Positions 31,993-58,918 of a stretch of DNA of 64,000 bases are shown here, one piece after another. The position numbers were made by a program, and so were the translations under genes. The notes under the pieces are model-generated. The model had not been told where the DNA came from, did not search any database, and saw only the letters and a list, made by a program, of their open reading frames with translations. Numbering within the stretch: the stretch's first letter is position 1; the number at the start of each line of letters is the position of its first letter. This stretch comes from an uncultured Gammaproteobacteria bacterium (GTDB taxonomy: Bacteria; Patescibacteriota; Microgenomatia; Levybacterales; UBA12049), in assembly GCA_964507055.1 (NCBI GenBank), contig CAZDOJ010000001.1, positions 657,313-721,312 on the forward strand. Reading direction: 5' to 3'.

Positions 31993-31994
31993 AG

Positions 31995-33377: not shown

Positions 33378-33381
33378 TACA

Positions 33382-33945: not shown

Positions 33946-33947
33946 TA

Positions 33948-35720: not shown

Positions 35721-36002
35721 TTATCGCTTAGCCAATGGTAACGGAGCGGCCATGTTGAGATGTGATTTGGCTGGAGCAAATCCCATGGATTTTGCCTTAG
35801 CATTAATTGTTGTAAAGGAAGCTGCCTGAAGATATTGCTCTTTCAATAATTCGTTTTCTTTTTTCACTTCTTCAGCCTGATTTTGCAGATCAACAAGAGC
35901 AACTCCAGTTGTAGAGATATTGTTCACAAGATAAATGCGGACAATAGAAAGGACTACGACTATAAATCCTAGACCTCCTAATAATAATATTGGTTTTTTC
36001 AT
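35721..36002 (-). CDS. FtsL-like small bitopic division protein
   Basis: 93 aa: a TM helix followed by a coiled-coil (QNQAEEVKKENELLKEQYLQ). It lies between rsmH and ftsI and overlaps rsmH by 4 nt. Confidence 0.5.
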   Translation of the reverse strand: MKKPILLLGGLGFIVVVLSIVRIYLVNNISTTGVALVDLQNQAEEVKKENELLKEQYLQAASFTTINAKAKSMGFAPAKSHLNMAAPLPLAKR

Positions 36003-36886
36003 ATTTTTTCAAAAACCCGCAATTTTGAACTTCTCGATCTACTATTTTCGGCAATCTCTTCTTGCGTCGGTATCACAGGCTTTTTCGTAATAATCTTCCC
36101 GAATCCTTTCTCTTCAAAGTCCAAAAATGCACGTTTTACAATCCTATCTTCCAGTGAATGAAAAGATATCACAGCAAGTCTTCCTCCCGTTGCCAGTAAT
36201 GGAATGGCTTTGGGCAAAACTTCCCGTACACTATTCAGCTCATCATTGACTGCAATTCTTAACGCCTGAAAAACCTTTGTCGCAGGATGTATTCCTTTAG
36301 GCGACGAAGGTACCGCTCTTCTGATAATCTCAGCAAGCTCAGTTGTTGTTTCAATCCGTTTTATTTGACGGGTGCGAATAATACTCTCGACAATGGATCG
36401 AGAAAATCTTTCTTCACCCAATTTAGTAAATAATTCAAATAATTCATTCTTTGTTAATGCATTCACTAGATCACTTGCTCGAACCCCCAACTCCTGATCC
36501 ATTCGCATATCAAGAGGTGCTTCCTTCATAAAGCTAAAACCTCTTTCAGCTGCATCAACATGATGGCTCGAGATTCCAAGATCTAAAAGAATCCCTGCCA
36601 CATTTTCAAAGCCATGCTCTTTTGCAAGAACATCAATATCTTTAAAATTACCTTTTGCTAAGATTAATTCTTTACCAATCGTATGTTTTCCGGCTTTAAA
36701 TTTTTTGGCAACATAGTTCAAAGCATCCTGGTCTTGATCAATTCCCAAAACTTTCCCCCCGTGTTCCAGGATGAGTGCAGTATGTCCCGCTCCTCCTAAT
36801 GTTCCGTCTATATATTTTTTCTCAGGCTGTACATTCAGTAATTCAATTGTTTGTCGTAAGAGTACACTTACGTGATAATTATTCAT
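35999..36886 (-). CDS. rsmH: 16S rRNA (cytosine1402-N4)-methyltransferase
   Basis: VSVLLRQTIELL...YIDGTLGGAGH is a canonical MraW/RsmH. Confidence 0.9.
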   Translation of the reverse strand: MNNYHVSVLLRQTIELLNVQPEKKYIDGTLGGAGHTALILEHGGKVLGIDQDQDALNYVAKKFKAGKHTIGKELILAKGNFKDIDVLAKEHGFENVAGILLDLGISSHHVDAAERGFSFMKEAPLDMRMDQELGVRASDLVNALTKNELFELFTKLGEERFSRSIVESIIRTRQIKRIETTTELAEIIRRAVPSSPKGIHPATKVFQALRIAVNDELNSVREVLPKAIPLLATGGRLAVISFHSLEDRIVKRAFLDFEEKGFGKIITKKPVIPTQEEIAENSRSRSSKLRVFEKI

Positions 36887-44125: not shown

Positions 44126-44794
44126 TTAAGAAGCACCCTTCCCTGAAACCATGGCCCAAGGAGTCTTGAGGATGATGTAAATATCAAGCAAAATTGAATT
44201 TTTTCGTGCGTAATCTGCATCCATTTGGATACGTTTATCAAATTTTACTTCACTACGGCCTGAGACTTGCCAATAGCCGGTAATACCAGGCTTAACAGAG
44301 AGCACTTCTTTCACAAGTCCTTTTGTTTGTGGGTAGGTTTTTTGTTGTCTTTCAAGCTCTTCTGGATAATATGGACGAGGGCCAACAAGACTCATTTCTC
44401 CTTTGAGCACATTTAAAAGCTGAGGGATCTCATCTAATGAATATTTTCGAATAATTCTTCCAAACCGTGTTATTCGTGGATCATTTTTAATTTTGTAATT
44501 TCCACCTTTTTGCTGTTCTTCATATGCTTTTTTAAATTTTGGATCTGTTTTTAATAAGTAATATGCGTTGACGATCATTGATCTAAATTTATATGGATAG
44601 AAAAATTTATTGTCTCTTCCAACTCTTCGTGGAGTGTCTGCAAGAATAGGACCCTTTGATTCTAATTTAATTGCTATCGCGACAAAAATAATAATTGGAG
44701 AAAATAAAAGAAGGAGAAAAACAGAAGAAACAATATCAATAGTTCTCTTTACTATTTCGTAGGTTATGCTTTGAGTATGTTTTTTTGAAGACAT
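44126..44794 (-). CDS. Polyprenyl-phosphate sugar-phosphate transferase (PglC/WbaP-C-like small monotopic PGT)
   Basis: Bac_transf hallmarks SLVGPRP and PGITGYWQVSGRS, with one N-terminal re-entrant helix. Confidence 0.85.
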   Translation of the reverse strand: MSSKKHTQSITYEIVKRTIDIVSSVFLLLLFSPIIIFVAIAIKLESKGPILADTPRRVGRDNKFFYPYKFRSMIVNAYYLLKTDPKFKKAYEEQQKGGNYKIKNDPRITRFGRIIRKYSLDEIPQLLNVLKGEMSLVGPRPYYPEELERQQKTYPQTKGLVKEVLSVKPGITGYWQVSGRSEVKFDKRIQMDADYARKNSILLDIYIILKTPWAMVSGKGAS

Positions 44795-44796
44795 GG

Positions 44797-45882
44797 CTAT
44801 GCCAGATGTTCGTAATCTGTCCCGCTAAGATTTTGTACGAACTTCTTTATCTTAGGGACAGAATCTTTTGGACAAATGAGAATAACATCGTCCATGCTTA
44901 CAACTACTAGACCTTGCAAATCGATACCCACAATCAACTGTTTTGTTTCATTATGCAAAATCGAATCGACACAATCTTCAAGCAATACTTTACCTTTTGT
45001 GACATTTGCATCAATATCATCACTGAGAGCTTCTTTTAAGGCTTCCCATGCACCAATATCACTCCATCCAATATCAGCTGAAATTACCATACCTGCTTTT
45101 GGATCCATCTTTTCTAAGATAGCATTATCAAAGGAGATCTTGTCTAATTTAGGATATGTTTCAGCCAATACTTTTTCATAGTCATCGGTACCATGTGCAT
45201 CTTGAATCTTTTTAAGATCTTTAAATAACTCTGGTGAAAACTCTTCAAATAGCTTCCAGAGAAATCTTGGAGTTGTAGCGAAGTATCCTAAATTCCATGA
45301 ATGTCGATTATCTTTTGCCCATTCTTTTGCAGTTTCAAGTGCAGGCCTATATTGAAACCCTGTAAATTCATGCACAGGAAATCCTTCAACATTTTCAGTT
45401 TCTTTCCCAAATTCAATATAACCAAGGTTTTGATTCGCGAATCGAGGCTTTTGTCCGATAAATACTATTTTCTCAGGATCCTTAAGAACTAGTTTTTCAG
45501 CAACACGAAGAATCTTACGGAACTCTGCTTCCTTCTTCACAAGGTGATCACTTCCCCAAAGAAGGACAATTGGTTCATCTGGGTTTGTTTTAACGAATTG
45601 CGAGATAACGAGTCCAACAGCGGGACCGACATCACGCATTTCAGGTTCAACAATGACGTTTGTCTCAGGTAGCTCAGGCAATTGCTCATGAATATGTCCT
45701 GCGTATTGTGTACCTGTTGAGATGTAGACATCTTCCCATGCAAATTCAGGGAATAACTTGTGAACAGCTATTTGGAGCATGGAACGATCAGCGATGATCT
45801 TTCCAAATTGTTTGGGAGCGTTTTTACGTGAGAGTGGCCATAATCTACTTCCAACTCCCCCTGCAAAAAGAACTATTTTCAT
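44797..45882 (-). CDS. Mannose-1-phosphate guanylyltransferase (ManC/GMP-like NTP-transferase)
   Basis: MKIVLFAGGVGSRLWPLSRKNAPKQF is a canonical ManC N-terminus. Confidence 0.8.
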   Translation of the reverse strand: MKIVLFAGGVGSRLWPLSRKNAPKQFGKIIADRSMLQIAVHKLFPEFAWEDVYISTGTQYAGHIHEQLPELPETNVIVEPEMRDVGPAVGLVISQFVKTNPDEPIVLLWGSDHLVKKEAEFRKILRVAEKLVLKDPEKIVFIGQKPRFANQNLGYIEFGKETENVEGFPVHEFTGFQYRPALETAKEWAKDNRHSWNLGYFATTPRFLWKLFEEFSPELFKDLKKIQDAHGTDDYEKVLAETYPKLDKISFDNAILEKMDPKAGMVISADIGWSDIGAWEALKEALSDDIDANVTKGKVLLEDCVDSILHNETKQLIVGIDLQGLVVVSMDDVILICPKDSVPKIKKFVQNLSGTDYEHLA

Positions 45883-45905
45883 ATCGTATCTGTACCATTA
45901 TAGTA

Positions 45906-46991
45906 TTAAATCACTTTCTTCACAAGTCTAAGAAACTCCTCCTTAAACTTTTTTTCACTGAACTTCTCGGCATTCTTTCGAACAGCTTTTTTATCAAACT
46001 TCATTTGATCAAATTGTTTCAGAGCATCAATAAGCGACCCAACCGTTTGTTGCTCAAAGAATAAACCTGTTTTCCCTGCTACAACGGTATCCAACGTACC
46101 GCCTTTGCGTAATGCAATGACAGGCTTTCCAAAAGCTTGTGCTTCAACGACCACCAATCCAAAATCCTCAACTGCTGGGAAAATGAGTGCTTTGCAATCT
46201 CGATAATAGGTAATCAATTCTTTATCGGTTAAGTTTCCAAGAAATTCAACTGTTGGACCAGCCATTGATTCTAGCTCTTGCTTCCAACTTCCTTCTCCAA
46301 CAATTTTTAGAGGAAGCTTTAATTTATTACATGCCTCGATAGCGATATCGACACGCTTATACTTGGTAAACTTTGAAAGACGCGAAACTACAAGAAAGTA
46401 CCCTTTGTCTTTACTTTGTGCCATCGTTTTAGCTGATGGAGCCAACGTAACTGGAGGATACACAATGAGGGATTCACGTTGGTAGTATTTTGTAATTCGT
46501 CCCTGAACTTCTGATGATATTGCCACTAACATATCCGGACGTGCTGCAGCTGCTTTATCCCATTTCCGTAAATATGATACAACTGGATTTGCGGCCATAC
46601 GTAAACCGGGATTTTTAAAATACTCTTCATAACCGCTCCAAAGATATCGAGTAGGAGTCAAGACATAGCTAATGTGTTTTGTTCCAGGCTTGGTAATTAT
46701 TCCCTTTGCAGCTTCACTTGTCACAGATATAACTAAATCATAGTTCTCAAATGAAAACCGCTCAAACGCCATCGGCATAAGAAATGGATACATTTCATGA
46801 TTTTTAACTGCATGAGGATATTTTTGTAAAAAAGAGGTTTTGATATCAAACACATCTGCCCACTTTGCAGTATGGGAATTATATACAGATGTAAAAAGAG
46901 GAGCTTTTGGGAATAGCTTGTGCAGGGCGAGAAGAACACGCTCTGCCCCACCCCATTTATTAACTCTATCGTAAACTAACGCTACTTTCAT
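45906..46991 (-). CDS. GT4 glycosyltransferase
   Basis: Retaining GT-B C-domain ...EDFGLVVVEAQAFGKPVIA... (EX7E region). Confidence 0.8.
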   Translation of the reverse strand: MKVALVYDRVNKWGGAERVLLALHKLFPKAPLFTSVYNSHTAKWADVFDIKTSFLQKYPHAVKNHEMYPFLMPMAFERFSFENYDLVISVTSEAAKGIITKPGTKHISYVLTPTRYLWSGYEEYFKNPGLRMAANPVVSYLRKWDKAAAARPDMLVAISSEVQGRITKYYQRESLIVYPPVTLAPSAKTMAQSKDKGYFLVVSRLSKFTKYKRVDIAIEACNKLKLPLKIVGEGSWKQELESMAGPTVEFLGNLTDKELITYYRDCKALIFPAVEDFGLVVVEAQAFGKPVIALRKGGTLDTVVAGKTGLFFEQQTVGSLIDALKQFDQMKFDKKAVRKNAEKFSEKKFKEEFLRLVKKVI

Positions 46992-48105
46992 AAACTTTCA
47001 CTGTTTCTTCAGCCATTTTCTTCCATGAGAACTGCTTTGCAAGAGCCATACCCTTTTCCTTTTTGGCTTGATATTGTTCTATATTTTTTAGAACTTTTTG
47101 CATTGTATCACTCATATTATCTATATCAAGCGGATTAAAGTAGATTGCAGCATCTTTATAGATTTCTTTAAATACCGGAATATCTGATGCAAGCACTAAG
47201 CACTGCTGCTGCATAGCTTCTAATCCTGGCAATCCAAACCCTTCCATCAATGAAGGAAAAACAAAGGCTTGAGCATTCTTATAGAGAGAACCTAGTTCTT
47301 CATCCGACACTATGCCTGTAAAAATTATACTTTTTTCAATAGATAATGTACTTGCATATTTTTCAAGCTCTTGGTAAAAATAATTCTTTTTTCCGACAAG
47401 AACTAGTTTTGTGGCAGGGAACTTCTCCAAAACATTTTTAAAACTTCTCAGCATACGTTCAATATTTTTATGTGGATAGGCATTCCCAACATACAATAAA
47501 TATTGCGTGCTATGAAGCGAGTGCAGCAGATCATTCTTTGAATGTGTATGTATTGATAAATGAGGGTCTACTCCCTCGTAAATAACGGCTATCTTTTTTT
47601 CTGAAATAGGTAAATGATCTTGTATCTCTCGTTTTGTTGCTTCTGAAACAGCAATAATTTTTTGAGCTTTTTTAGCTGTTTGCTTAAGAATAAATTTATA
47701 CCCAAGTCGTTTTAAATGGTACATTAGCGAAGGCAATGTCGATGCTTTACCTGTTGGAAAATGATTGATAATAAGATCGTGAATTGTAATAACGTAGGGC
47801 TGATTATATAGAACAGGAATAGAGAAGTAAGGGAAATGCACAAGATCTAAAGACTCGTTTTCTAAAACTTTATAAAATAATAATTGCTCTTCAATACTAT
47901 GCCATTTGATATCAGTTTCTACCAATTTCCATCGACTAGCTTTCGCTTTTGTAAAGTTAAAAACTTCATTCGACGATGCAGCTGGAGTAACAAATAAAAC
48001 ATACTGATTCTTCGTATCTATTTGTTGAAGTTCTGTAATAAGATTGCGGATATATCTACCTACACCAGTTTCATTCCAAAGCCTGGCATCAATACCTATT
48101 CTCAT
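46966..48105 (-). CDS. GT4 glycosyltransferase
   Basis: From the internal start MRIGIDARLWNETGVGRY (ATG at 48103-48105) the protein runs to a C-domain EGFGLPGLEAM. Confidence 0.8.
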   Translation of the reverse strand: MRIGIDARLWNETGVGRYIRNLITELQQIDTKNQYVLFVTPAASSNEVFNFTKAKASRWKLVETDIKWHSIEEQLLFYKVLENESLDLVHFPYFSIPVLYNQPYVITIHDLIINHFPTGKASTLPSLMYHLKRLGYKFILKQTAKKAQKIIAVSEATKREIQDHLPISEKKIAVIYEGVDPHLSIHTHSKNDLLHSLHSTQYLLYVGNAYPHKNIERMLRSFKNVLEKFPATKLVLVGKKNYFYQELEKYASTLSIEKSIIFTGIVSDEELGSLYKNAQAFVFPSLMEGFGLPGLEAMQQQCLVLASDIPVFKEIYKDAAIYFNPLDIDNMSDTMQKVLKNIEQYQAKKEKGMALAKQFSWKKMAEETVKVYESSVSLR

Positions 48106-48128
48106 GAATAAAGTATAACACAGCCGTA

Positions 48129-49328
48129 CTATACTGATTTTGTGGTATCTGAATATACTGCATGGAGCTTCTTTGAAATCTGTTTCCAAGTATAGTTCTT
48201 CTCAATAAACTCTCTACCATTTTTGCTTACGGAGTTATACAAATTTTCATCCTTTAACACTTTAAGCGTTTCATCGGCCAACGATTCAGCATCATTTCCT
48301 ACAAGTAATTCTTTACCATCTTTCGCTTCAAGAGCATCTGCACTTAAAGGCATTGTGATAACCGGAGTGCCACAACTCATAGACTCAAGAATTTTATAGC
48401 TTGTTCCACCTCCAACTCGAATTGGAGCTAACAATACTGCAGCTTTTTGAAATATCTCAGGTGTTTGCATAGCGGAACTTTCTTCATCAAAGAGTACATC
48501 TGGATCATTGGTCAAGTTACGAATTGAATCAGGTATACTACGTGCAACAAACCAAAGCTTCACATTATCTTCAGATAATTTTTTCTTTAAAATTGGCCAA
48601 ATATCTTGAATAATAAATGTTGCACTATCTTTATTTTGAATCCATTTAAAATCTCCAATAAATAAAATTCTTTTCTCTTTCCGATCTCTTTTTTGAAAAG
48701 ATAAAAAAGAGAATTGGTCTATATTTACTCCATTTGATACAACTTCGGCGTGAATACCGGATTTTTTCATAATGATAGTGTCATCATTTGAGACCGCAAC
48801 GACCTTTTGAGCTTTTCGCCAAAGGAACTCTTCTTCATTTTTTATTTTCTGAATATCCAATGACAAAAGAGGCCTCAAGAAAATTGGAGCATTATTCATA
48901 TATCGCTCATACACTTTATATTCGATATTATGTTCGACGAGCACTATTGGGATTGAAGTTTCAGGGATATTTTGCATGACGTAATATGTTTCGACATGAA
49001 TAACATTAAAGTTTTTTTCTTTTAATAAGTTTTTAAGTACCGCTCGCATTTCTGGTAGATCATGACCTGTTGAAAGAAAAGATTTTGAAGAACTTGTGGC
49101 TTTCACGAGATTAGAGAAACTCCACTGCTTTTTTCTTTTTACAGTTATAACTTTATGACAAATCTTCTCAACTTCATGAACATCATCGTCGGTTTCATTT
49201 GGTCGTCTTTCACAAACAAGAGTAATTGTATAGAGGTGAGATAACTCTTTTATAAGATTGTACAATCTTACCTGACCACCTGAATAAAGAGGGTATGGTA
49301 AATACGATGAAACAATAAGGATATTCAT
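48129..49328 (-). CDS. GT4 glycosyltransferase
   Basis: MNILIVSSYLPYPLYSGGQVR... and a C-domain GGGTSYKILESMSCGTPVI. Confidence 0.8.
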   Translation of the reverse strand: MNILIVSSYLPYPLYSGGQVRLYNLIKELSHLYTITLVCERRPNETDDDVHEVEKICHKVITVKRKKQWSFSNLVKATSSSKSFLSTGHDLPEMRAVLKNLLKEKNFNVIHVETYYVMQNIPETSIPIVLVEHNIEYKVYERYMNNAPIFLRPLLSLDIQKIKNEEEFLWRKAQKVVAVSNDDTIIMKKSGIHAEVVSNGVNIDQFSFLSFQKRDRKEKRILFIGDFKWIQNKDSATFIIQDIWPILKKKLSEDNVKLWFVARSIPDSIRNLTNDPDVLFDEESSAMQTPEIFQKAAVLLAPIRVGGGTSYKILESMSCGTPVITMPLSADALEAKDGKELLVGNDAESLADETLKVLKDENLYNSVSKNGREFIEKNYTWKQISKKLHAVYSDTTKSV

Positions 49329-49329: not shown

Positions 49330-50790
49330 CTACTTTTTATGCAAGTCGAAAATGGCGTACTGCTCTGTAAATGTAATTACTTTATATTCTTTTTCCCATT
49401 GCATTTTGTCTTGTTCTGACGGATTAATTAGTACTAAATAATCAGCACCTTTTTCAATAAGCTCAGGTATTGGATTTTGGAAACTTGCCCAGCCTTTCCT
49501 ATTCATTTGATATAAAAGGGATGTATCTCCATTATAATTTGCCACTATTAAAGCATCATTTGGCGTAAGCTGTTGGACCGCAGCTCCCGCAGCTAATATT
49601 GAACGATTATTAATATTGAAATATTCTTTGACAATATTCCAGCTCATATAGAAACTTCCAGCTATGATTAATACCACAAGAACTTTTCCAAATGGAAGGA
49701 ATTTAAGCTTCCATTGCATAAGATAATAACTTCCTATTGCCATAACTATAGCAACACTTGGAATAGTAGGAATTTGATAATAATCATGCTGCACATTTCC
49801 CGTCGCAATAATAGAAACAAAAAGAAGCGGACTTATGATAAAAGACACAAAAAATGGCCATTCTTTTATCGCACGTAATTTATATGCTCCAAAAGCAAGT
49901 AATGCTATACCAAAATATCCGCTTATTAATACAGTAAGCCTTTCATAGAAAATCCATCGAAAAAATGAAGGTCTAAAGCGGATGCCATTGCTGTTAAATA
50001 GCCATATATTTGCAGGAATCCCCTCGGGGAATTGTGATATCCATATCCGCCATGCTAAAAGAGGTGCAACTGCAAGAAAGGCAAAAATCCACATGTACCA
50101 TTTCAGAACTATCCTCCAACCAAAATGTTTCAATGCAATATAAACGATTGGGAGAATAAAAAATAGAGAATGCGGCTTAAGCAAAAATGCTGTAGCTGTA
50201 AATAGGAGTGCTAATATAAATTGTATTACGATTGATTTAGTTTTTGATTTCTTTCTAGAAAGTTCTTCAATCCATCTATCAAAGAAATAAATTGCTCCCA
50301 AAAAGGCCATAACCATCGTAGTGTCTGGAAGTATAGTTCGACCATAGTAAATATTAAAAGGGATAAACATATAGAAGAATGCACTCAATAGTCCAATCGT
50401 GTTATTACTGTGACGTTTAACAATTAAATAAAGGAAAAGACCTGCAGCAACTGATGCAGACATGCTCACTAGCCTACCCCATTGTTCAATGGTAAAGACA
50501 CCAAATAGCATAAATAATCCTGCCTGTAGGGCATTGTATATTGGGAATTCAACAAAGAAGTAACCATTCGGATTATCTAACCCTGATTGCACATTGGAAA
50601 TATTAACCATCTTAGGATAGAGTAAATTAATTCCTTCGACAGTGTAGTTTCTTGAGACTGAAGAAGTTTCAGACTGGCGCCAGCTATGCCAATCAGCTAT
50701 TGGATTATCAAATCCATATAACCGGACAATAAATCCTCCAAGGAGAATAAGAGCGAGAATAAGAAGGGTGTGGTTTTTTAGAAATTTCAT
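49330..50790 (-). CDS. GT-C-fold polytopic glycosyltransferase, ArnT/PMT (GT39/83)-like
   Basis: From the start MKFLKNHTLL (ATG at 50788-50790, overlapping the TGA of the upstream gene as ATGA) the protein has a first extracytoplasmic loop DWHSWRQSETSS and about 12 TM helices. The ORF-track start at 50958 lies inside the upstream gene. Confidence 0.55.
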   Translation of the reverse strand: MKFLKNHTLLILALILLGGFIVRLYGFDNPIADWHSWRQSETSSVSRNYTVEGINLLYPKMVNISNVQSGLDNPNGYFFVEFPIYNALQAGLFMLFGVFTIEQWGRLVSMSASVAAGLFLYLIVKRHSNNTIGLLSAFFYMFIPFNIYYGRTILPDTTMVMAFLGAIYFFDRWIEELSRKKSKTKSIVIQFILALLFTATAFLLKPHSLFFILPIVYIALKHFGWRIVLKWYMWIFAFLAVAPLLAWRIWISQFPEGIPANIWLFNSNGIRFRPSFFRWIFYERLTVLISGYFGIALLAFGAYKLRAIKEWPFFVSFIISPLLFVSIIATGNVQHDYYQIPTIPSVAIVMAIGSYYLMQWKLKFLPFGKVLVVLIIAGSFYMSWNIVKEYFNINNRSILAAGAAVQQLTPNDALIVANYNGDTSLLYQMNRKGWASFQNPIPELIEKGADYLVLINPSEQDKMQWEKEYKVITFTEQYAIFDLHKK

Positions 50791-53700
50791 TTTACTTCTG
50801 AAATTGTACCATTCTTGTATTGGAAGATGTACGTATTTGCCGGATTTGCTACTTTTGCAGATGTCGCCTGATCCAATGAATTTGTTTGTACAACCTTTGG
50901 TGTTTTCTCTCGATAGATGAACCACAATCCATCTTGTAAGCCAACAGGGAATAACCATACATCTTGATGTTTTGCAGGTACATTTACGAGATATAGCGTG
51001 TCCTTTGGAGTAAAGCTTGCATATCCTGTTCTAAATGTTAAGAGCATTCCTTGTGCAATCGAGCCTGATTGTGACCATTTTAACTGCTCATTTTTATTCT
51101 GATTACTAGCGAGGAGAGCGACAATAGCAAAGAGAATAAGAATAACACTTACAAATAATGTCTTTTGTTTAATAATCTGCTTAAGGAATGCATAGACAAT
51201 AATAACAAACGACAAGCATAAGCCGAATGAGCCTAGATACATATATCGTGCAGAGATATTCCCCAAAGGCAAGAATGGAAGAAGTGAAATAAATGCAAAG
51301 ATAATACCAAAAAGTATTAATTGGGCATTAGTATGCGTTATGAGTTTTGTTAACTGCTTTTTAGCTTTATAAAAGTAATACGCTCCAGCACCTAGGATAA
51401 GTAGACTTACGCCACTAAGAACAAGCCATTGTGATCGCAAATTACTTCGTAATCCGTCATACGCAGGAAGGAATGAAGCCCCGCCAAAGAACAATCCCAA
51501 GTATCCTAAAAAATTCCCTATGACATTAGGAACTATTTTGGCAAGATTATAGCTATAATCGCCCCCACCTGAAAATGCTCCAGATACGGATCTCATAACG
51601 AAGTACAACACAACCAGTAGAACAAAAGGTAGATATGTCATAAGCAATTTTGCAGAACGCTTTGGTTTATAAATAAGTACATCCATTGCAATAAATAGTA
51701 ATGGGATAATTACTGAGATTTCATATGAGACAAACGCCAAGGCACTTAATATTACTGCACCTACATAAGCCACAGTCATATGTTTTGTTCTGAAATAGTG
51801 ATAGCAAAGCATTGCATATAAAATAAACATTGATGCTAAACCAATTGAAAGGGTTGAGAACCAGAAGAGATTTTCTGTATGAGCAGGAAGCAACGCAAAT
51901 AATACTGCAGTAAGGAACCCAACTAACCGTGATTTCGTTAAACGACTACCTAAAAGATATACGGCCACTGTTGATAAGAAATGAAGTAGCAGGATAAAAA
52001 GATGGTATCCTTCTGGATTGAAGGAGAATAACATATACAAGAAATAGACAACTACCTTATCCAATGGACGATAGAAGAAGTCTTGTGCATTCACAAAGTA
52101 CATAGGTAGATCTGTTGGCATTGCGGTTGCAGCCCATCGCAACCAGGTAAAATCATCAGCAACAAAGAAGTTCTTAATCGAAGCTGCATAACCAACTAAA
52201 ATTATAATTAATAAATAAAGAAGAAGCATAATTGGGGCCGTGAAGAAGCCCTTGAGTGATTGCTTGTAATCTATTGGCTTTTTTTGATAAAGTTTTGCAG
52301 CACCGACTCCAATACCCATAAGTATCCAGAACGGTTCCGCTACTTTAGAAGCTTCAAATACATCAATTAATACAGCATTTACTAATAGACCAATTGTTCC
52401 ACCAGCCAAACCAAATAATAAAGCTCTGACAATCGGATCTTTCGTGTCTTTAACACTATGTTTCATGAAAATACCTAGAATCACAAAAATGAATAAGAAA
52501 GTTAGCAATCCTACTAATCCCGTTTCACCTAAAGCTCGTAGGTAATCATTATCTGTCGCAAGCGTCAAAGAAGAGTAACCTGTGCCAAAGATAGGACTAA
52601 AAAGGAACGCATTCCAATTTCTTGGCCATTCTGCTTGAAAACGAGTAGTAAACGAAATATCTAACGCATATGCTTTTTTAATGAGGAAACTTCCTGAAAC
52701 AGAAGAAATTGCTATGTCCCCATTTTGGATTGATTGCAATTGTTCTTGTGTTAAGACAGTGGTGTATCCACTCTGAGATCCAGTTTTATCAGATCCAACA
52801 GTAAAATCACTTGCAGGCGGAACTTCGGCATTCTTTTGTTCCTCAGCCTTTTTGGCATCTGCAATTATTTTTTGAAGATCTGCAGGTAATGCATTTTCAC
52901 TTGAAACCACTTGAACTTCCTGGATGGTATTTGAGAATCGCTGAATCGTTGCATTACCAAATAGCATCATTACACCAACACTTACAACCATTATCGGAAT
53001 AATCCATCGCTTCTTTTGCCAAAGAATAAGCATACCAACAACACCGATAACATATGCCCCAAATGATGTACGCGATGAAGTAAAATTGAGAACTTCCAAT
53101 GCAAATAAAGCAAGGATTGCGATAAGTATTTTCAATGACCATCGCTTTACTGCAAATACTAAAGCAATAAGGACAGGAATAACCATTACCATATATGCCG
53201 ATAGGTCATAATGACCACCAAATGTTGAACTTACTCTGGATAATTCGTTTAGGCAAAGGGGTGTACCTTTTGCGAATTCTTCATTTCCAGTGAGAAAGGC
53301 TGGGAAGCAAAATGGATAGGTTTGGAAAAAGTCAGGAAAAATCTTCCAAAGTATTGTATAAAAACGCTGGCCAAAACCATAAAAAACGATACCTAAAATA
53401 GTTATACAAAGTGTTATAAGGTAGAAATAAACATCTTTGACATTTCTCACCGATGAGAAGGCGATGAAAAAGAGAATCATATATTCTATACGTCGGAAGT
53501 ACTGGAGCCAAGCAACACTCGGGAAGAAATTAGCGAGCGTAGGAGCAATAAAGGTAAGACAATAAAGGAGTGAAGCAAGTCCAGCAACCCAATAGAGAAT
53601 GAGTGCATAGCCTTCAGGTCTTGGTAGTGAGACTTTTCTCCGGACAAGCTGTATAAGCCAAATCAAAGCTAAAGCTGCAATAACAAAGTCTTCTAAACGA

Positions 53701-53825
53701 ATGTATACCCATGTATTATCGATATTAATACTTGGAAGCTTAGGATAAAGTGCAGTAAAAAGAATCGCAAAAGCGACTCCAAAACGTAGAATATTATTAT
53801 CAATAAGCTGCAATAACTTCTTCAT
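50787..53825 (-). CDS. Fusion membrane protein: N-terminal O-antigen-ligase/PglL-like Wzy_C domain + C-terminal GT-C-like (PMT/ArnT-like) polytopic domain
   Basis: 1012 aa. The N-half has a Wzy_C core ...SSRTSFGAYVIGVVG..., a large extracytoplasmic loop and GTGYSS...TDNDYLRALGETGLVGLL (compare WaaL HNxYLqxLaETGiiG). The C-half has about 12 further TM helices and a GT-C-like loop. Confidence 0.5.
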   Translation of the reverse strand: MKKLLQLIDNNILRFGVAFAILFTALYPKLPSINIDNTWVYIRLEDFVIAALALIWLIQLVRRKVSLPRPEGYALILYWVAGLASLLYCLTFIAPTLANFFPSVAWLQYFRRIEYMILFFIAFSSVRNVKDVYFYLITLCITILGIVFYGFGQRFYTILWKIFPDFFQTYPFCFPAFLTGNEEFAKGTPLCLNELSRVSSTFGGHYDLSAYMVMVIPVLIALVFAVKRWSLKILIAILALFALEVLNFTSSRTSFGAYVIGVVGMLILWQKKRWIIPIMVVSVGVMMLFGNATIQRFSNTIQEVQVVSSENALPADLQKIIADAKKAEEQKNAEVPPASDFTVGSDKTGSQSGYTTVLTQEQLQSIQNGDIAISSVSGSFLIKKAYALDISFTTRFQAEWPRNWNAFLFSPIFGTGYSSLTLATDNDYLRALGETGLVGLLTFLFIFVILGIFMKHSVKDTKDPIVRALLFGLAGGTIGLLVNAVLIDVFEASKVAEPFWILMGIGVGAAKLYQKKPIDYKQSLKGFFTAPIMLLLYLLIIILVGYAASIKNFFVADDFTWLRWAATAMPTDLPMYFVNAQDFFYRPLDKVVVYFLYMLFSFNPEGYHLFILLLHFLSTVAVYLLGSRLTKSRLVGFLTAVLFALLPAHTENLFWFSTLSIGLASMFILYAMLCYHYFRTKHMTVAYVGAVILSALAFVSYEISVIIPLLFIAMDVLIYKPKRSAKLLMTYLPFVLLVVLYFVMRSVSGAFSGGGDYSYNLAKIVPNVIGNFLGYLGLFFGGASFLPAYDGLRSNLRSQWLVLSGVSLLILGAGAYYFYKAKKQLTKLITHTNAQLILFGIIFAFISLLPFLPLGNISARYMYLGSFGLCLSFVIIVYAFLKQIIKQKTLFVSVILILFAIVALLASNQNKNEQLKWSQSGSIAQGMLLTFRTGYASFTPKDTLYLVNVPAKHQDVWLFPVGLQDGLWFIYREKTPKVVQTNSLDQATSAKVANPANTYIFQYKNGTISEVK

Positions 53826-53875: not shown

Positions 53876-54490
53876 TTATCGGAACCATGCGGCACGCCCT
53901 AATTTATAGTGCAGATCTTTTGATTTACGTTCCCCAATGACTTTTGCAGGAACACCTCCAACTATAGCATATGGTTCAACTGATTTGGTAACAACAGCAC
54001 CAGCTCCTACCACACTTCCCTTACCGAGAGTTACACCTGGAAGGATAATTGCACGTGGACCAATAAAGACATAATCATCAATGACTACCCTCTCCGAAAT
54101 TGCATGAAAATCATCACTATGAATATCATGTTGGCTGTTATAGATCATGACTTCAGAAGCAATATCAACATGATCCCCAATAACCAACTTCTCTCTTCCA
54201 TCTAAAACAGCATATTCACCTATAATTGTATCTTTTCCAATAACTATATTGCTTGGATTGTAGAAACGTGCACCTTCATGAAGCGTTGATCCTTCGCGAA
54301 TTGTCATCCCTGCCAATCGATAAACGAATCTTCTGACATGATGCGAAGGGAAATGTCCTACGAGATGCAAAAGAAAAACAAAAAATTCACGTGCTACTGT
54401 GTTCGATCTGTTTTTTGCTTTTCTTTGAAATTCGTCTGAAAATAAATTCTGATTTAACTTACTTGCCATATTATTTTGCCGCAATATCAA
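53876..54490 (-). CDS. Hexapeptide-repeat (LbH) acetyltransferase
   Basis: GVTLGKGSVVGAGAVVTKSVEPYAIVGGVPAKVIGER is paralogous to 1865-2404. Confidence 0.8.
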   Translation of the reverse strand: MILRQNNMASKLNQNLFSDEFQRKAKNRSNTVAREFFVFLLHLVGHFPSHHVRRFVYRLAGMTIREGSTLHEGARFYNPSNIVIGKDTIIGEYAVLDGREKLVIGDHVDIASEVMIYNSQHDIHSDDFHAISERVVIDDYVFIGPRAIILPGVTLGKGSVVGAGAVVTKSVEPYAIVGGVPAKVIGERKSKDLHYKLGRAAWFR

Positions 54491-55622
54491 CGAGTACTTT
54501 TAATGTTTCTTTTGCAGTTTTTTCCCAGCTAAACTTATCAGCTTGTTTTTTCCCTTTTTCTACCAAAGTCTTTCGTAGTTCCTTATCATTTATAACCTTA
54601 GTAAGTTTTTGAGCAATGTCTTGGCTATCTTTGGGATCGATATAAATAGCAGCATCGCCGCCAGCTTCAGGCATACTGCTTATATTACTTGTAATAACAG
54701 GACATCCTTGCTTCATAGCTTCAACAACAGGCAAACCAAACCCTTCATAGAGGCTTGGAAGTACATAACAGAGAGCATTTTTATAGAAGATTTTAAGTTC
54801 ATCATCATTTATTCCTTCAAGAAATCTCACTTTGTCCTGGACACCATATTTTTGTGGAGCGTTGAGTATCTCTTCATACAACCAACCTTTTTTACCAATA
54901 ATTACTAATTGAAGATCGTCTTGATATTCAGCATGTAACTTTTTACTTTCCAGTAATAAAGCAAAAGCTTCAATGAGTCGTGATATATTTTTTCGGGGTT
55001 GTAGGGTACCAACAAATAGAACAAAATTATCGCTGATATTGTACTTTGCTTTTAGTTCGTTCATGGCGTAAACATGAGGTTCAAGTGAGACAGATTGCTT
55101 GATCCCAGGGTAAATTGTCTTCACTTTTTGCTCAGGAACTTTATATGTTTTAATTATATCATTTCTGCTTGAGTTACTAATTGTTAATACTTTACTTGCT
55201 TTCTCAACAGAATATTTTGTCCAATTACGAAGTTGATACATATCAGATTTATTAAATAGCTCTGGAAATTGGAGAAATGCTAGATCCATAATTGAAACAA
55301 CGGTAGGGATCGGAGAAAATCTTGGAGCATAATGGGTTGGGCTAAAGAACACATCAGGTTTCGTTTTAGTGAGAAATAGACTCAATGGCAATCCAAATTG
55401 CGTCCAAAACTTACCAGGCCCAACAATCTTATATTTCCAATTAGAAGTCTCTTTAGGCAATACTTTAAGCGGATGTTGTTTTAAATAAATTACAAACTGT
55501 ATATCAACCGATTTATTGGACTCTGCAAATTTTGCAAAATAATAGAGTAACCAATACGCATATTCGCTAATACCAACTCTTTTTTCTACATTTGCTTCAT
55601 TACCATCAATTGCAATAATCAT
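54471..55622 (-). CDS. GT4 glycosyltransferase
   Basis: N-domain IAIDGNEANVEKRVGISEY and C-domain EGFGLPVVEAMKQGCPVI. Confidence 0.8.
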   Translation of the reverse strand: MIIAIDGNEANVEKRVGISEYAYWLLYYFAKFAESNKSVDIQFVIYLKQHPLKVLPKETSNWKYKIVGPGKFWTQFGLPLSLFLTKTKPDVFFSPTHYAPRFSPIPTVVSIMDLAFLQFPELFNKSDMYQLRNWTKYSVEKASKVLTISNSSRNDIIKTYKVPEQKVKTIYPGIKQSVSLEPHVYAMNELKAKYNISDNFVLFVGTLQPRKNISRLIEAFALLLESKKLHAEYQDDLQLVIIGKKGWLYEEILNAPQKYGVQDKVRFLEGINDDELKIFYKNALCYVLPSLYEGFGLPVVEAMKQGCPVITSNISSMPEAGGDAAIYIDPKDSQDIAQKLTKVINDKELRKTLVEKGKKQADKFSWEKTAKETLKVLVDIAAK

Positions 55623-55637
55623 AATTGTTTCATCAAC

Positions 55638-56162
55638 TTAATTTCCTGGATACGTTACAAATAAGCGAGATTCTTCAATACCTAAGATTTCTTTTGCATC
55701 TTTTTTGGTTGCCTCTGAGATACAGAATATTACGTCCGTTTCTTTTTTTACCCAAGCCAATTTCCTTTTTTGTGTTTCAATAATTTTTTGTGCGGTCTCT
55801 TCAGGAAATTTGTAAATGATAAGATCATAAAGTATTGTTGCCTTTTTTGCTTTTTTGGTTGGCGGTTCAGTCCAATCTGAAGTAATAAACATATCGACAT
55901 TACCAATGAAATTTTCAATTGGCAGAATATGCATCCTATTCCAAAGAAGATCAAGAACTGTGGGAGGAATTTTAAAAGTTTTTACCCTGACGTTTTTTGC
56001 TTGTATAAAATCTAACGGAATTGTCCTTCGTAAACTTGAATAAAAAAGAATATATTCGTTATTTGGATCTGAGGTAATCATAGAAGACAAGAGGTTCTTA
56101 AGGTAATTTCCAACACCAGTCCTCTCATATGCCATTTGTGAAATATCTATACCAATCTTCAT
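55638..56162 (-). CDS. GT4 N-terminal domain only (stand-alone half-GT or truncated remnant)
   Basis: MKIGIDISQMAYERTGVGNY... aligns with GT4 N-domains. The protein stops at ...FVTYPGN, where full GT4s continue into the sugar-donor-binding C-domain. The next gene, 15 nt downstream, is a complete GT4. Confidence 0.55.
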   Translation of the reverse strand: MKIGIDISQMAYERTGVGNYLKNLLSSMITSDPNNEYILFYSSLRRTIPLDFIQAKNVRVKTFKIPPTVLDLLWNRMHILPIENFIGNVDMFITSDWTEPPTKKAKKATILYDLIIYKFPEETAQKIIETQKRKLAWVKKETDVIFCISEATKKDAKEILGIEESRLFVTYPGN

Positions 56163-56215: not shown

Positions 56216-57784
56216 CTATCTGAAAAGAAGTGAATCAATAATATTTGGGTCAGATTGAATAGTTCTTTGTTTATCATTAAGTATATATTTCTCTATTCTA
56301 AAATGATTTGGAAATGTCCATGTTTTTTCTGGTTTTCCATCAATTCTTACTCTATTTTTTCGCCACCAATCACCCTGTGCATAATAATTTTCTTCATCTC
56401 CAGGAGCAATAATTAAATAGGTGACTTCTGATTTCTTATACGGTAAGACTTTGATTTGAGAATGTTCTTTACCAACAAAATTCATCGCATATCGAGGACT
56501 ATAACCATAAGCATCAGGAGAAAAAATGTAATAACCAAATTCTTTATCACCTTGTTTATAGATAGTCTCAGCTAAACTTTTATTAAATAACCAACTCCCT
56601 GAATTTTTCCCAATAAAATTGTCGTATGACTGCATAACGGAATATGTGTATGTCATTATTGAAATTAATAAATATATAAATAAAGGATAGAAAATATATT
56701 TTTTTAAGCTCAATAAACTGGAACAAAAGATAATAACTATCATTGGTAAGAAAGGCCAGTAATAGTAACCCCATACGGTTCCCTTAAAGAAACTTGTAAG
56801 TATCCAAAAGCCTGCAATAAAGTAGAAGATTAGCATATATAATCTTTTGTACTCTGTCCTTTTCCTGATTGTTTGTATGAGTAGCCATGCAAAAATGGAT
56901 AATATACAAAGAATAAGGAGAGTAGAAGGATATGGAACCATAGAAAAAGTGGAAATTATCCCATCGAAACGATTAACAATAAATTCTTGCATTGTCAGTT
57001 TTTCTCCTGCAGATTTAGTTATATGACTAATAAGTGCATTTGTTTGCAAAAAATTATTCCTCAGTTCAAAAACAATATATGTAGATAAAGGCAAAATGAT
57101 ACCCGATAAGGCTAATAACTCTTTATATCGTTTTGTTTTTATTATCTTTATAACTACAAGGATTGTTGCTAGTACAAGTAATGGTCCTCCAAAAGCTATT
57201 TGGAATTGTATAAGAAGTCCAAGAAGAAGATACGAAAAGAAGAGTTTTATAAAATTTTGATTTTGCAAATAAGAATAAAAAATGAGGAAAAAGAGAGGAA
57301 AGACCATAACGGCTCCAAAAGGATTAAATAAGCTCGATGCCATCGTTATGGATAAGCCAGAAATTAATAACGAGCTGAGTAAGCCTACACGCTGATTAAA
57401 GAGAGATTTACCCACATAAAATGTTATATAGGTTAAAATGAAAATCAGGCTTACCCAAAACCATCCTACTATCACTGGGTCTCCATTTGCAATGATGAAA
57501 GCAGGTAGATTAACATAAAACCATAAAGGTCCATGAAATACACCGGATATGCCGCCTGAGCGAGGTCCTAATAATGTTGGACTATGTGTTGTAACAATAT
57601 CTTCAAGTAGAAGAAAATCTCGTGCAATATCTGTATGGAAAAAGATATCTTGATGAAGAACAAACCAAAAACTAAACGAGCTAAAAATTAGTGTGCCTAA
57701 TATTAATAATATATTTATGGCATATCCAATACGGTTAGAATTATTTTTTTTTACTTCATTTTTTTTCACTTTTTTCTCAGTCAT
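56216..57784 (-). CDS. Polytopic membrane protein, putative GT-C-like glycosyltransferase
   Basis: 522 aa with a Lys-rich N-terminus, 12 or more TM helices and a C-terminal soluble domain. There is no decisive motif. Confidence 0.35.
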   Translation of the reverse strand: MTEKKVKKNEVKKNNSNRIGYAINILLILGTLIFSSFSFWFVLHQDIFFHTDIARDFLLLEDIVTTHSPTLLGPRSGGISGVFHGPLWFYVNLPAFIIANGDPVIVGWFWVSLIFILTYITFYVGKSLFNQRVGLLSSLLISGLSITMASSLFNPFGAVMVFPLFFLIFYSYLQNQNFIKLFFSYLLLGLLIQFQIAFGGPLLVLATILVVIKIIKTKRYKELLALSGIILPLSTYIVFELRNNFLQTNALISHITKSAGEKLTMQEFIVNRFDGIISTFSMVPYPSTLLILCILSIFAWLLIQTIRKRTEYKRLYMLIFYFIAGFWILTSFFKGTVWGYYYWPFLPMIVIIFCSSLLSLKKYIFYPLFIYLLISIMTYTYSVMQSYDNFIGKNSGSWLFNKSLAETIYKQGDKEFGYYIFSPDAYGYSPRYAMNFVGKEHSQIKVLPYKKSEVTYLIIAPGDEENYYAQGDWWRKNRVRIDGKPEKTWTFPNHFRIEKYILNDKQRTIQSDPNIIDSLLFR

Positions 57785-57823: not shown

Positions 57824-58918
57824 CTATTTATTTTCATTTTTATATTCAATAAGTGCATGTATCAGTCCTGCACAAAGGAATAAGAATGCCCATGCAGCTG
57901 TAAGCTCTGCCAAATGTTCGTAATATATATAATAAAGGGTACTACTTAACACAAGGAAAAGACCTGAAACAATAAAAGAAATCTTACTTTTGAATTCCCC
58001 TGCGAGGATATATATCCATATTCCAATAAGTACAATATAGACAGCAGCATAAGTAATTTGAAAAATAAAAATATCGCTAAGAATCATTACCAGTAATAAA
58101 GATAAAAGAAATACTTTTATATATGTCAGATCAAATAAGATTTTTGATTTAGAATAAATTTGTTTTGGTATACGACTATAGATGAACGTATTAAATCGTC
58201 CAGAGACTTTCTCTCCTTGTGGTGTAATCAGCAGAAAGTGAATAATAAGAGGTAATAGGAAAATAAAGGAAACATATAAAACTTCTGCTGTTTTTAGTGC
58301 ATTAAACTTTTTTAAAGTAAAGTAAACAAACTCTTTTTTATCAGATAAAAGAAAAGCTTTTGAAGTTTCATATTTACTGATTATGACGGGTTCACGTCTT
58401 GATACAGCAACAGCGTTTCTCTGATTTCCTTCAAGAGATTGTATTTCAAAAACATATTGTTTTCCCTGAGAATCAAGAATTTTAGGAAAACCAAATGGAA
58501 AAACAGGAACATCATAGATAAGACCTGCTCTATAATTATTCTGATAGTACCAGTCTTTAGCACCTTTCTCTTTAATACGAAAAACTACCTTATCTTCGTC
58601 TTTATATGGCACCCTACTAAAAATGGTAAATCTTACCGCTACAATGCCCAAATTATTTTCTGCGGCAGTAAACTCACCCTCTACCTTGTCTCCCGTTAGA
58701 AGTTTTTCATGCTGTACTTTAGTGAAAGTATCCTGACTATGATTATATGAAAGGATAAGAAAACTTTTATCATATGATGTTATATAAAGTAATGTGAATA
58801 CTCCCCAAAGAGCAAAAAGTATCAATGGAACAAGCCCATATATTAATGATTTATTTAGTACACTTTTTCTTTCAGTTTTTTTCATATCGTTTTTTGAACT
58901 TGATAACGCTATATCCAA
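57824..58918 (-). CDS. Membrane protein, unknown (N-terminal TM, extracytoplasmic domain, 4 C-terminal TM helices)
   Basis: Hydropathy pattern only. Confidence 0.3.
   Translation of the reverse strand: MDIALSSSKNDMKKTERKSVLNKSLIYGLVPLILFALWGVFTLLYITSYDKSFLILSYNHSQDTFTKVQHEKLLTGDKVEGEFTAAENNLGIVAVRFTIFSRVPYKDEDKVVFRIKEKGAKDWYYQNNYRAGLIYDVPVFPFGFPKILDSQGKQYVFEIQSLEGNQRNAVAVSRREPVIISKYETSKAFLLSDKKEFVYFTLKKFNALKTAEVLYVSFIFLLPLIIHFLLITPQGEKVSGRFNTFIYSRIPKQIYSKSKILFDLTYIKVFLLSLLLVMILSDIFIFQITYAAVYIVLIGIWIYILAGEFKSKISFIVSGLFLVLSSTLYYIYYEHLAELTAAWAFLFLCAGLIHALIEYKNENK

Follow-up and report, generated by a model that had tools for sequence, protein, structure and literature searches.

Organization of the locus

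The window (the whole stretch of 64,000 nt that was analysed), from a member of the Microgenomatia (Levybacteria-like Patescibacteria), carries a gene encoding a membrane protein composed of two polytopic modules joined by a Lys-rich linker (Table 1). Both halves were tested and agree with the preliminary description, which had recognized a WaaL/Wzy_C-type and an ArnT/PMT-type module. The motifs quoted there, GTGYSS and NDYLRALGETG, were found at aa 414-419 and aa 426-436, respectively. According to a crude hydropathy scan and the helices of the AF2 model, each half contains about 12 TM helices, giving about 25 in total.

Table 1. Features of the fusion gene and its neighbours (positions within the window)
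Feature	Position	Strand	Description	Basis
Whole fusion gene	50787..53825	(-)	1012 aa + stop, ATG start	ORF list and translation
N-terminal module, aa 1-511	52293..53825	(-)	WaaL/Wzy-type (GT-C_B) 12-TM domain; large outer loop aa ~299-430
Catalytic-loop motif T424-D425-N-D-Y-L-R-A-L-G-E-T-G436-L-V-G439	52509..52556	(-)	Asp for His	WaaL-pattern regex
Inter-module linker, aa 512-530	52236..52292	(-)	Lys-rich, KLYQKKPIDYKQSLK	AF2 helix map and sequence
C-terminal module, aa 531-1012	50790..52235	(-)	GT-C_A (ArnT/PMT-type), ~12-13 TM helices; small alpha/beta outer domain aa ~936-1012
A556-D557-D558	52152..52160	(-)	First outer loop of GT-C module; putative catalytic/metal-binding acidic pair
ATGA stop/start overlap	50787..50790	(-)	Fusion gene and downstream GT-C gene	Sequence
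Second, separate GT-C gene	49330..50790	(-)	PMT_2 family, 486 aa	PMT_2, 47.2 bits (cut-off 26.1)
Upstream partner block	53876..56162	(-)
Hexapeptide acetyltransferase	53876-54490	(-)	Upstream partner	Pfam
GT4	54471-55622	(-)	Upstream partner	Pfam
174-aa protein resembling the GT4 N-terminal domain	55638-56162	(-)	Upstream partner	Pfam
Downstream partner block	44126..49328	(-)
Three GT4 genes	48129-49328, 46966-48189, 45906-46991	(-)	Downstream partners	Pfam
ManC-like nucleotidyltransferase	44797-45882	(-)	Downstream	Pfam
Bac_transf	44126-44794	(-)	Initiating phosphoglycosyl transferase, downstream	Pfam

The operon order GT4N>GT4>acetyltransferase>FUSION>PMT_2>GT4>GT4>GT4 is conserved. The upstream partners were syntenic in 62-70 of 80 loci and the downstream GT4 genes in 52-68, while manC occurred within the 6-kb flank in only 6 loci. 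The gene immediately downstream of the fusion, previously described as ArnT/PMT-like, proved to encode a PMT_2 protein, and it occupies this place in 65 of the 68 loci with enough sequence. As had been described, the fusion's TGA (50787-50789) overlaps the ATG of this gene (50788-50790). The same 4-nt overlap is present in 27 of 70 related loci, some overlap in 43, and a gap of at most 30 nt in 22 more. This conserved tight spacing supports the translational coupling that the overlap had suggested, but it does not by itself prove a physical complex.

A complete cluster of peptidoglycan and division genes is also present in the window. LPS genes, a flippase gene (wzx or ABC type) and genes for pilin, an S-layer protein or an LCP ligase were absent from the window, and no clear polyprenyl-P-sugar synthase gene was located next to the fusion gene.

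Distribution of the fusion in related genomes

The identical protein (100%) is encoded on 8 contigs, which represent at least two different sequencing runs. More than 120 full-length homologs share 45-100% identity, with coverage nearly always 99-100%, and at least 381 loci with full-length relatives at 32-74% identity were found in a collection of species-representative genomes. The named relatives belong mostly to Levy-, Gottesman-, Shapiro- and Woesebacteria or other Patescibacteria. Among 80 loci of species-representative genomes, 76 had an uninterrupted ORF of at least 900 aa; two of the others were cut by contig ends and two were interrupted, neither of them at the module junction. The copies on 8 contigs and the intact full-length relatives rule out an assembly artefact and refute the earlier suspicion that a sequencing error had joined two genes; the junction itself lies slightly downstream of the stretch flagged for this reason (52300-52500). 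The fusion protein is thus a genuine 1012-residue membrane protein conserved throughout an entire class of uncultured, ultra-small bacteria.

A search for split versions in related genomes, as the preliminary description had proposed, revealed no separate, adjacent N- and C-terminal halves. The statement that such a fusion is unusual holds among characterized enzymes, whereas within this lineage the fusion is the norm (at least 381 species-representative loci). Stand-alone relatives of the C-terminal half are real genes (481-503 aa) located inside glycan clusters. In two loci (L087 and L085), they are extra paralogs after a complete fusion gene; in a third (L084), the gene lies in an ABC-transporter glycan cluster, and no fusion relative was found among the three upstream ORFs compared. 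Their occurrence within glycan clusters suggests that the C-module type can function as an autonomous enzyme.

In public records the protein is named 'O-antigen ligase family protein', and its C-terminal 480 residues are left undescribed. No paper on this family emerged from literature searches directed at the fusion or at glycan ligases of Patescibacteria.

N-terminal module

The N-terminal module adopts the WaaL fold, with 12 TM helices and a large loop on the outer side. The domain search gave a Wzy_C match (PF04932) above the Pfam gathering threshold (38.3 versus 31.7 bits), which covers the entire profile at aa 238-444, in line with the preliminary description; the same match was obtained for 40 of 43 homologs. 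A regular-expression search found the H[NSQ]x9GxxG frame only at residue 425, with Asp in the position of His, and a scan of the fusion protein detected no His within aa 290-445. D425 is invariant (77/77 sequences), as are R252, R296, R395 and R430 in the same 77 sequences, down to 32% identity. The WaaL/PglL signature reported earlier therefore holds for the fold but not necessarily for the reaction, since the motif cited lacks the catalytic His.

In WaaL, the acceptor-activating His is His-313 of 7TPG, and within the inverting clan, which comprises WaaL, SEDS and some Wzy proteins, this position is occupied by Asp in SEDS and by Asp or Glu in polymerases (PMC10920833). In register with 'TDNDYLRALGETGLVG' of the fusion, the window's own FtsW contains 'TDSIFPIIAEEFGFFG' and its RodA 'TDFIFATIAEGLGFFG', the common pattern being TD...E..G..G. 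WaaL also binds the Und-PP phosphates through two Arg residues. Using hhalign, R252 was aligned with R215 of E. coli WaaL in a weak match (E 0.06), and the family profile gave a weak local match to the window's FtsW (E 0.42) and an E of 0.089 with the adjoining PMT_2 protein; these alignments served only for the motif register, and the WaaL/SEDS residue equivalences are those of motif register and weak matches rather than of residue-level structural superposition. A literature search for the WaaL residues H337/R215 returned nothing. Confidence in the AF2 model is lowest in the loop that carries D425 (pLDDT <50 at aa 417-426).

The replacement of the WaaL His by an invariant Asp, which gives a "TD" motif of the SEDS/inverting-polymerase type, indicates that the N-terminal module is not a canonical His-type O-antigen ligase. 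The module may be a polymerase; the Asp or Glu that marks inverting Wzy polymerases (CAZy clan GT-C1) is present as the invariant D425. The combination of a Pfam FTSW_RODA_SPOVE match and a SEDS fold, characteristic of SEDS proteins (GT119), was not found in the fusion.

C-terminal module and junction

The C-terminal module has a GT-C_A membrane-domain fold of the ArnT/PMT/STT3/ALG type, and a transporter fold for this half was rejected. D558 is present in 77/77 and D557 in 76/77 homologs. In the AF2 model this pair directly follows TM1 of the module, placing acidic residues in the first extracytoplasmic loop. E651, R586, K590, R793 and R860 are, like D557, nearly invariant (77 sequences, down to 32% identity).

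Sequence identity to solved GT-C structures is only 8-16%, and the fusion protein scored below the cut-off of every Pfam GT-C family. Its only such match was PTPS_related (PF10131; 18.2 bits, threshold 26.4), and the PMT_2 threshold (PF13231) was likewise not reached; among 43 homologs, PMT_2 was matched in 3 (best E 4.7e-9) and PTPS_related in 5. A sequence search of the PDB with the family profile gave nothing even at E 10, WaaL chains included, and NCBIfam offered no meaningful match for the fusion or the PMT_2 protein. The oligosaccharyltransferase motif WWDYG, sought as W[WY]D[YWF]G, is absent from the fusion protein, and an STT3/PglB/AglB identity was rejected accordingly. The C-terminal outer domain comprises only ~75 aa in the model.

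The spacing from W500 to D558 is 58 residues in 71 of 77 homologs, despite a linker identity of only 27%. The helix map, the Lys-rich and presumably cytoplasmic linker, and this fixed spacing point to a same-side topology of the two modules.

Proposed function of the fusion protein

Based on the folds, motifs, conservation, synteny and junction length observed, we infer the donors, acceptor, order of reactions and a polymerase or ligase role as follows. The cytoplasmic enzymes of the operon (phosphoglycosyl transferase, several GT4 proteins, acetyltransferase and ManC) would build a lipid-linked precursor. In the N-terminal module, R252, R296 and R395 may hold an undecaprenyl-diphosphate (Und-PP)-linked oligosaccharide, and Asp425 may act as the base activating the acceptor hydroxyl, the glycan block being transferred with inversion either in chain polymerization or in ligation onto a final acceptor. 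The C-terminal module would use a polyprenyl-monophosphate-sugar as donor and transfer one sugar from it via the D557-D558 pair. The short linker of fixed length would set both active sites on the outer membrane face, where one module could act on the other's substrate, preparing or decorating it, as in Brucella WadA. The second, translationally coupled GT-C (PMT_2) would act together with the fusion; the conserved operon and stop/start overlaps suggest such coupled action. The product is expected to be a glycopolymer or glycoconjugate conserved on the surface of wall-bearing cells presumed to lack LPS.

Judging from the invariance of R252, R296, R395, D425 and D558 and the near-invariance of the other residues, both modules appear to be active. 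The protein most likely couples two outward-facing active sites, one for Und-PP glycan-block transfer and one for polyprenyl-P-sugar addition, and its role is probably to complete a conserved glycan of the cell surface. As an overall explanation, we favour, with moderate confidence, a bifunctional ~25-TM enzyme that makes a surface glycopolymer or glycoconjugate with its operon partners. Weighing against this explanation are the missing flippase gene in the window, the lack of a clear polyprenyl-P-sugar synthase gene beside the fusion, the weak alignments to WaaL and SEDS, the low model confidence around D425, the scores below the Pfam GT-C cut-offs and the empty PDB sequence search. More tentatively, the family could represent a new 'assembly-line' class, in which one polypeptide would fix the relative geometry of a GT-C_B module (block transfer or polymerization of Und-PP-glycan, Asp as base) and a GT-C_A module (single sugars, polyprenyl-P-sugar as donor). 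The two would dock the second GT-C, supplied by translational coupling, and with it carry out all extracytoplasmic steps of the signature envelope glycopolymer of Microgenomatia.

Several other explanations were considered. Protein O-glycosylation, in which the Wzy_C module would be a PglL/WsfB-type O-oligosaccharyltransferase acting on pilin, S-layer or other surface proteins while the PMT-like module and PMT_2 glycosylate Ser/Thr with single sugars, seems unlikely. It is still less probable that only one module is catalytic and the other is a degenerate scaffold for a complex or substrate, for example an N-terminal half inactivated by the His-to-Asp change. The missing canonical His would fit such a scaffold, as would the outer loop, a low-confidence stretch of the model whose length varies widely among homologs (124-184 residues). 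However, the Asp and several Arg residues of this half are invariant, no part of the protein is better conserved than the TM core of this half (47-49% mean identity versus 34% for the GT-C half), and Asp is the normal catalytic residue here in SEDS and inverting Wzy families (PMC10920833). For an artefact, either two neighbouring genes wrongly joined or a transporter taken for a glycosyltransferase in the C-terminal half, nothing was found in favour; its probability is close to nil, and we count it as already refuted.

Patescibacteria form an abundant and mostly uncultured group whose members rely on contact of their cell surface with a host or partner. An operon conserved in hundreds of species, with a rare covalent pairing of both classes of lipid-linked-sugar transferases, is a concrete target for reconstitution. 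With its linker of fixed length, the fusion offers a way to study how Und-PP block transfer and polyprenyl-P single-sugar transfer are coordinated on the outer membrane face, and the Asp that replaces His in a WaaL fold is relevant to the divergence of ligases, Wzy polymerases and SEDS proteins. The name 'O-antigen ligase' is misleading in organisms thought to lack LPS. If the assembly-line reading is true, the operon would open the cell-surface chemistry of this major uncultured lineage to genetics.

Comparison with known systems

The O-antigen ligase WaaL (CAZy GT121; Cupriavidus metallidurans structures 7TPG/7TPJ; E. coli WaaL) differs from the fusion: its acceptor-activating His is replaced by the invariant Asp, the outer loop of the fusion is longer, and the fusion is covalently joined to a second glycosyltransferase. 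As far as we know, Patescibacteria make no LPS, so the lipid A-core acceptor of WaaL would be missing in these hosts. With SEDS proteins (RodA/FtsW, GT119) and inverting Wzy proteins (GT-C1), the fusion shares the register of the catalytic motif, including Asp. In comparison with GT-C_A enzymes of the ArnT/PMT_2 type (GT83/GT39-like, including GtrC-type periplasmic glycan modifiers), the C-terminal module is distinguished by its position behind a Wzy_C module, by scores under all Pfam GT-C cut-offs and by its low identity to solved structures.

The closest precedent is WadA of Brucella/Mesorhizobium, a bifunctional O-antigen ligase (GT25 + GT121) that likewise combines a glycosyltransferase and a Wzy_C-type ligase module in a single polypeptide, one activity preparing the acceptor of the other (PMC9938171, PMC10920833). 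The glycosyltransferase of WadA is a soluble, cytoplasmic, nucleotide-sugar-dependent N-terminal GT25 domain, whereas the partner in the fusion is a polytopic C-terminal GT-C module, and the Pfam search of the fusion protein revealed neither a GT25 domain nor a soluble GT domain of another kind. Moreover, the two sites of WadA face opposite sides of the membrane, while both sites of the fusion would face outward, and WadA keeps its His (H605), in contrast to the Asp of the fusion.

A further parallel is TacL, the lipoteichoic-acid ligase of Streptococcus pneumoniae, a Wzy_C protein by which an Und-PP-linked polymer is passed to a glycolipid of the membrane (PMC5727136). It resembles the fusion in being of the Wzy_C type and in occurring in a bacterium that has no outer membrane, but TacL is a single module of 397 aa as opposed to the two-module fusion. 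Its membrane glycolipid is a plausible model, by analogy, for the acceptor of the fusion.

Fusion Gene and Its Conservation

Coordinates of the features are collected in the table. The preliminary description had reported a 1012-aa ORF, which is present, ATG-initiated and contains both quoted strings (GTGYSS, aa 414–419; NDYLRALGETG, aa 426–436). Its TGA stop shares the sequence ATGA with the start codon of the neighbouring gene, and the ArnT/PMT-like assignment of that neighbour was borne out by Pfam. A crude hydropathy scan and structure models gave about 12 TM helices per half of the fusion. Very probably, the protein is a bimodular enzyme, in which a WaaL/Wzy-type GT-C_B half (N module, aa 1–511) is joined to an ArnT/PMT-type GT-C_A half (C module, aa 531–1012).

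Features of the window (positions in nucleotides unless given as aa)
Feature	Position	Strand	Description
Glycan cluster	42008–63811	-	DUF4012 protein, Bac_transf phosphoglycosyl transferase, ManC-like enzyme, three GT4 genes; PMT_2 gene, fusion, hexapeptide acetyltransferase, GT4, 174-aa GT4N; unassigned membrane proteins of 522, 364 and 714 aa, second acetyltransferase, GT4, GT2
DUF4012 gene	42008–44017	-	669 aa, single TM helix, large outer domain
PMT_2 gene	49330–50790	-	486 aa; Pfam PMT_2 47.2 bits (cut-off 26.1)
Fusion gene	50787–53825	-	ATG start, 1012 aa (ORF list and translation)
Inter-module linker	aa 512–530	-	Lys-rich stretch KLYQKKPIDYKQSLK
GT4N gene	55638–56162	-	174 aa
522-aa membrane protein	56216–57784	-	8–9 TM helices, large soluble C-terminal part
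364-aa membrane protein	57824–58918	-	one N-terminal TM helix, soluble domain of ~170 aa, five C-terminal TM helices
714-aa membrane protein	58872–61016	-	8–9 TM helices, large soluble C-terminal part
Division/cell-wall cluster	21245–36886	-	MraW, FtsI, Mur ligases, MurA, MurB, MraY, FtsW, MurG, FtsA, FtsZ
Alpha/beta-hydrolase gene	22415–23140		between MurG and FtsW
Cu-oxidase_4 gene	30032–30748		YfiH/PgeF-like, between two Mur ligases
Second SEDS gene	9661–10848		
Distant glycan genes	863–1810 (-), 2419–3492 (+), 5827–7415		315-aa GT2 with three hydrophobic segments, Acyl_transf_3 membrane acyltransferase, two further GT2 genes

The joining of two genes by a sequencing error, raised earlier as a possible artefact, is refuted by a 100% identical protein recorded on eight contigs and by intact ORFs in related loci. 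The two of these eight places that were displayed came from separate sequencing runs and had the same neighbouring genes. More than 120 full-length relatives (~1007–1082 aa, 45–100% identity, coverage nearly all 99–100%) were found by the homolog search, and a scan of a species-representative genome collection confirmed at least 381 fusion loci. The best 80 of these, 32–74% identical to the fusion, were used for the related-loci comparisons; they align over essentially residues 1–1012, save two copies truncated at contig ends, and most of them come from records titled Levybacteria, Gottesmanbacteria, Shapirobacteria, Woesebacteria, Microgenomates or "Patescibacteria group". An uninterrupted ORF of at least 900 aa occurs in 76 of the 80, two end at a contig edge, and two are broken, both away from the module junction.

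The broken copies have a stop after ~233 aa (locus L010, 5992–9030) and a change of frame after ~752 aa (locus L017, 5959–9029), and are either sequencing errors or pseudogenes. It should also be noted that the Microgenomatia-type fusion gene appears in many records titled "uncultured Gammaproteobacteria", "Acidiferrales", "Sulfotelmatobacter", "Lysobacterales" or "Pacearchaeota archaeon" (L005, L007–L009, L011, L014–L016, L070 and others). The probable explanation is a placeholder or incorrect taxonomy in the titles, or mis-binning of the contigs.

Relatives of the fusion are already in public databases as "O-antigen ligase family protein", bifunctional ligases such as WadA are known, and both folds are well known. 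Literature searches found no paper on this two-module architecture. New features are a single polypeptide that unites the two GT-C structural classes and has two sites predicted to be directed outward, an Asp instead of the His inside a WaaL fold, and the conservation over a whole class of Patescibacteria within a fixed operon.

N-Terminal Module

The label of a WaaL/PglL-like Wzy_C domain held at the superfamily level. Pfam Wzy_C covers aa 238–444 over the entire profile at 38.3 bits (cut-off 31.7) and is also matched by 40 of 43 fusion homologs. However, a defining feature of canonical O-antigen ligases, the catalytic His, is absent. The WaaL pattern H[NSQ]x9GxxG, located at H338 in E. coli K-12 WaaL, has a single frame in the fusion, D425-N-x9-G436-x-x-G439, with Asp in place of His, and no His was found in aa 290–445. 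D425, R252, R296, R395 and R430 are identical in all 77 sequences compared, and R252 falls on R215 of E. coli WaaL in a weak hhalign match. In WaaL, two Arg residues bind undecaprenyl-PP (Und-PP) and the His activates the acceptor; the His position is Asp in SEDS proteins and Asp or Glu in inverting Wzy polymerases (PMC10920833). The window's own FtsW reads TDSIFPIIAEEFGFFG and its RodA TDFIFATIAEGLGFFG, in the same register as TDNDYLRALGETGLVG of the fusion. The Wzy_C match, the invariant D425 and this register point to a WaaL fold bearing a predicted polymerase/SEDS-type catalytic Asp.

C-Terminal Module and Junction

The GT-C-like character of the C half with about 12 TM helices was supported by modelling. 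Residues 530–1012, modelled alone with 42 homologs (pLDDT 91.6, pTM 0.91), form ~12–13 TM helices followed by a small terminal alpha/beta domain. Acidic residues in the first outer loop are a GT-C hallmark, and here D557 is conserved in 76 and D558 in 77 of 77 sequences; E651, R586, K590, R793 and R860 are almost invariant. Of the GT-C clan families, the fusion itself matches only PTPS_related, at 18.2 bits, under the cut-off. Among 43 homologs, three match PMT_2 (E down to 4.7e-9) and five PTPS_related, while distant stand-alone relatives of the C half match PMT_2 or GtrII weakly. Pfam detected no MIR domain in the fusion. An oligosaccharyltransferase identity was ruled out for this module, because the WWDYG motif is absent.

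Based on the positive-inside rule and the helix map from the AF2 model, the linker is placed in the cytoplasm, so the WaaL-type outer loop (aa ~299–430) and the first GT-C loop (aa 552–603) would share the outer side. W500 and D558 lie 58 residues apart in 71 of 77 sequences, even though the linker itself has only 27% identity; unlike this fixed junction, the outer loop ranges from 124 to 184 residues across homologs. The fixed length suggests that the arrangement of the two modules relative to each other is important.

Stand-alone relatives of the C half (481–503 aa, 34–43% identical) are genuine mid-contig genes, so the GT-C module appears to be an autonomous enzyme type. One of them, at locus L084, belongs to an ABC-transporter glycan cluster; comparison of three ORFs upstream of it gave no match to the fusion. 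No genome with the two halves as separate neighbouring genes was found among the related loci and stand-alone relatives examined. Locus L087 (984–7966) carries a variant operon, GT4-acetyltransferase-fusion-GT2-stand-alone GT-C-PMT_2-GT4, whose fusion has 1061 aa and the same DN-x9-G motif. The order GT2-stand-alone GT-C-PMT_2-GT4 recurs in L085 (1–4558), where the contig stops within an upstream ORF matching the fusion C terminus. The stand-alone GT-C of these loci is an additional paralog of the fusion's GT-C half, giving three GT-C_A modules in succession.

Operon and Proposed Pathway

All genes of the glycan cluster relate to glycan synthesis and lie on one strand. The core order GT4N>GT4>acetyltransferase>fusion>PMT_2>GT4>GT4>GT4 is recurrent across the best 80 of at least 381 loci. 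Of 68 loci that extend far enough, 65 have the PMT_2 gene directly 3′ of the fusion. In 43 of 70 loci the stop codon of the fusion overlaps the PMT_2 start codon (by 4 nt in 27), and the gap is at most 30 nt in 22 more.

We suggest the following pathway. The phosphoglycosyl transferase and GT4 enzymes would build an Und-PP-linked oligosaccharide, the substrate of the N module, which would move this block with inversion using Asp425 as the base. The C module would add a single sugar from a polyprenyl-P-sugar via D557 and D558, and covalent fusion would let one step prepare or decorate the other's substrate. A precedent is Brucella WadA, whose ligase domain uses an acceptor sugar supplied by its GT25 domain (PMC9938171). 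The translationally coupled PMT_2 protein probably performs a further outer-face step, and the product is probably a conserved envelope polymer, glycolipid or glycoprotein. As TacL shows, glycolipids can serve as acceptors for polymers ligated by Wzy_C enzymes in monoderms (PMC5727136). The whole scheme of an outward-acting bimodular glycan-assembly enzyme, with both module steps and the product, is in our opinion moderately probable.

The N module may be a ligase or a polymerase. On the side of a polymerase are the putative Asp base and the fact that no other recognisable Wzy-type polymerase was found among the operon genes. The WaaL-like fold and the unusually conserved, non-variable operon are as compatible with a ligase as with a polymerase that makes a conserved polymer.

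Other Genes of the Window

Within the 64-kb window, no gene was found for a flippase, an LCP enzyme, a pilin or an S-layer protein. The 364-aa protein, for which no family match was found, is a possible candidate for the cluster's missing flippase or chain-length factor. The DUF4012 gene forms the end of the cluster and adjoins the phosphoglycosyl transferase gene; its product could be an attachment or export factor. The 522-aa and 714-aa polytopic proteins have no significant Pfam match, faintly resemble the GT-C-like DUF6044 and GT-C_AftD, and are poorly conserved (3/80 and 11/80 related loci, respectively). Should both be GT-Cs, the GT-C_A modules of the cluster would number four. GT4N, which resembles a GT4 N-terminal domain, lies just 5′ of a complete GT4 gene and matches Glyco_transf_4 weakly (positions 119–165 only, E 0.0012). 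Since it is kept in 62 of 80 related loci at ~59% identity, it appears to be a maintained half-size protein and not a pseudogene.

The full division/cell-wall cluster indicates that the host makes peptidoglycan. This cluster contains unusual inserted genes (see the table), and its MurB-like ORF is short (236 aa, FAD_binding_4 only). Among the glycan genes far from the glycan cluster, the 315-aa GT2 is a possible polyprenyl-P-sugar synthase, which could supply the GT-C enzymes.
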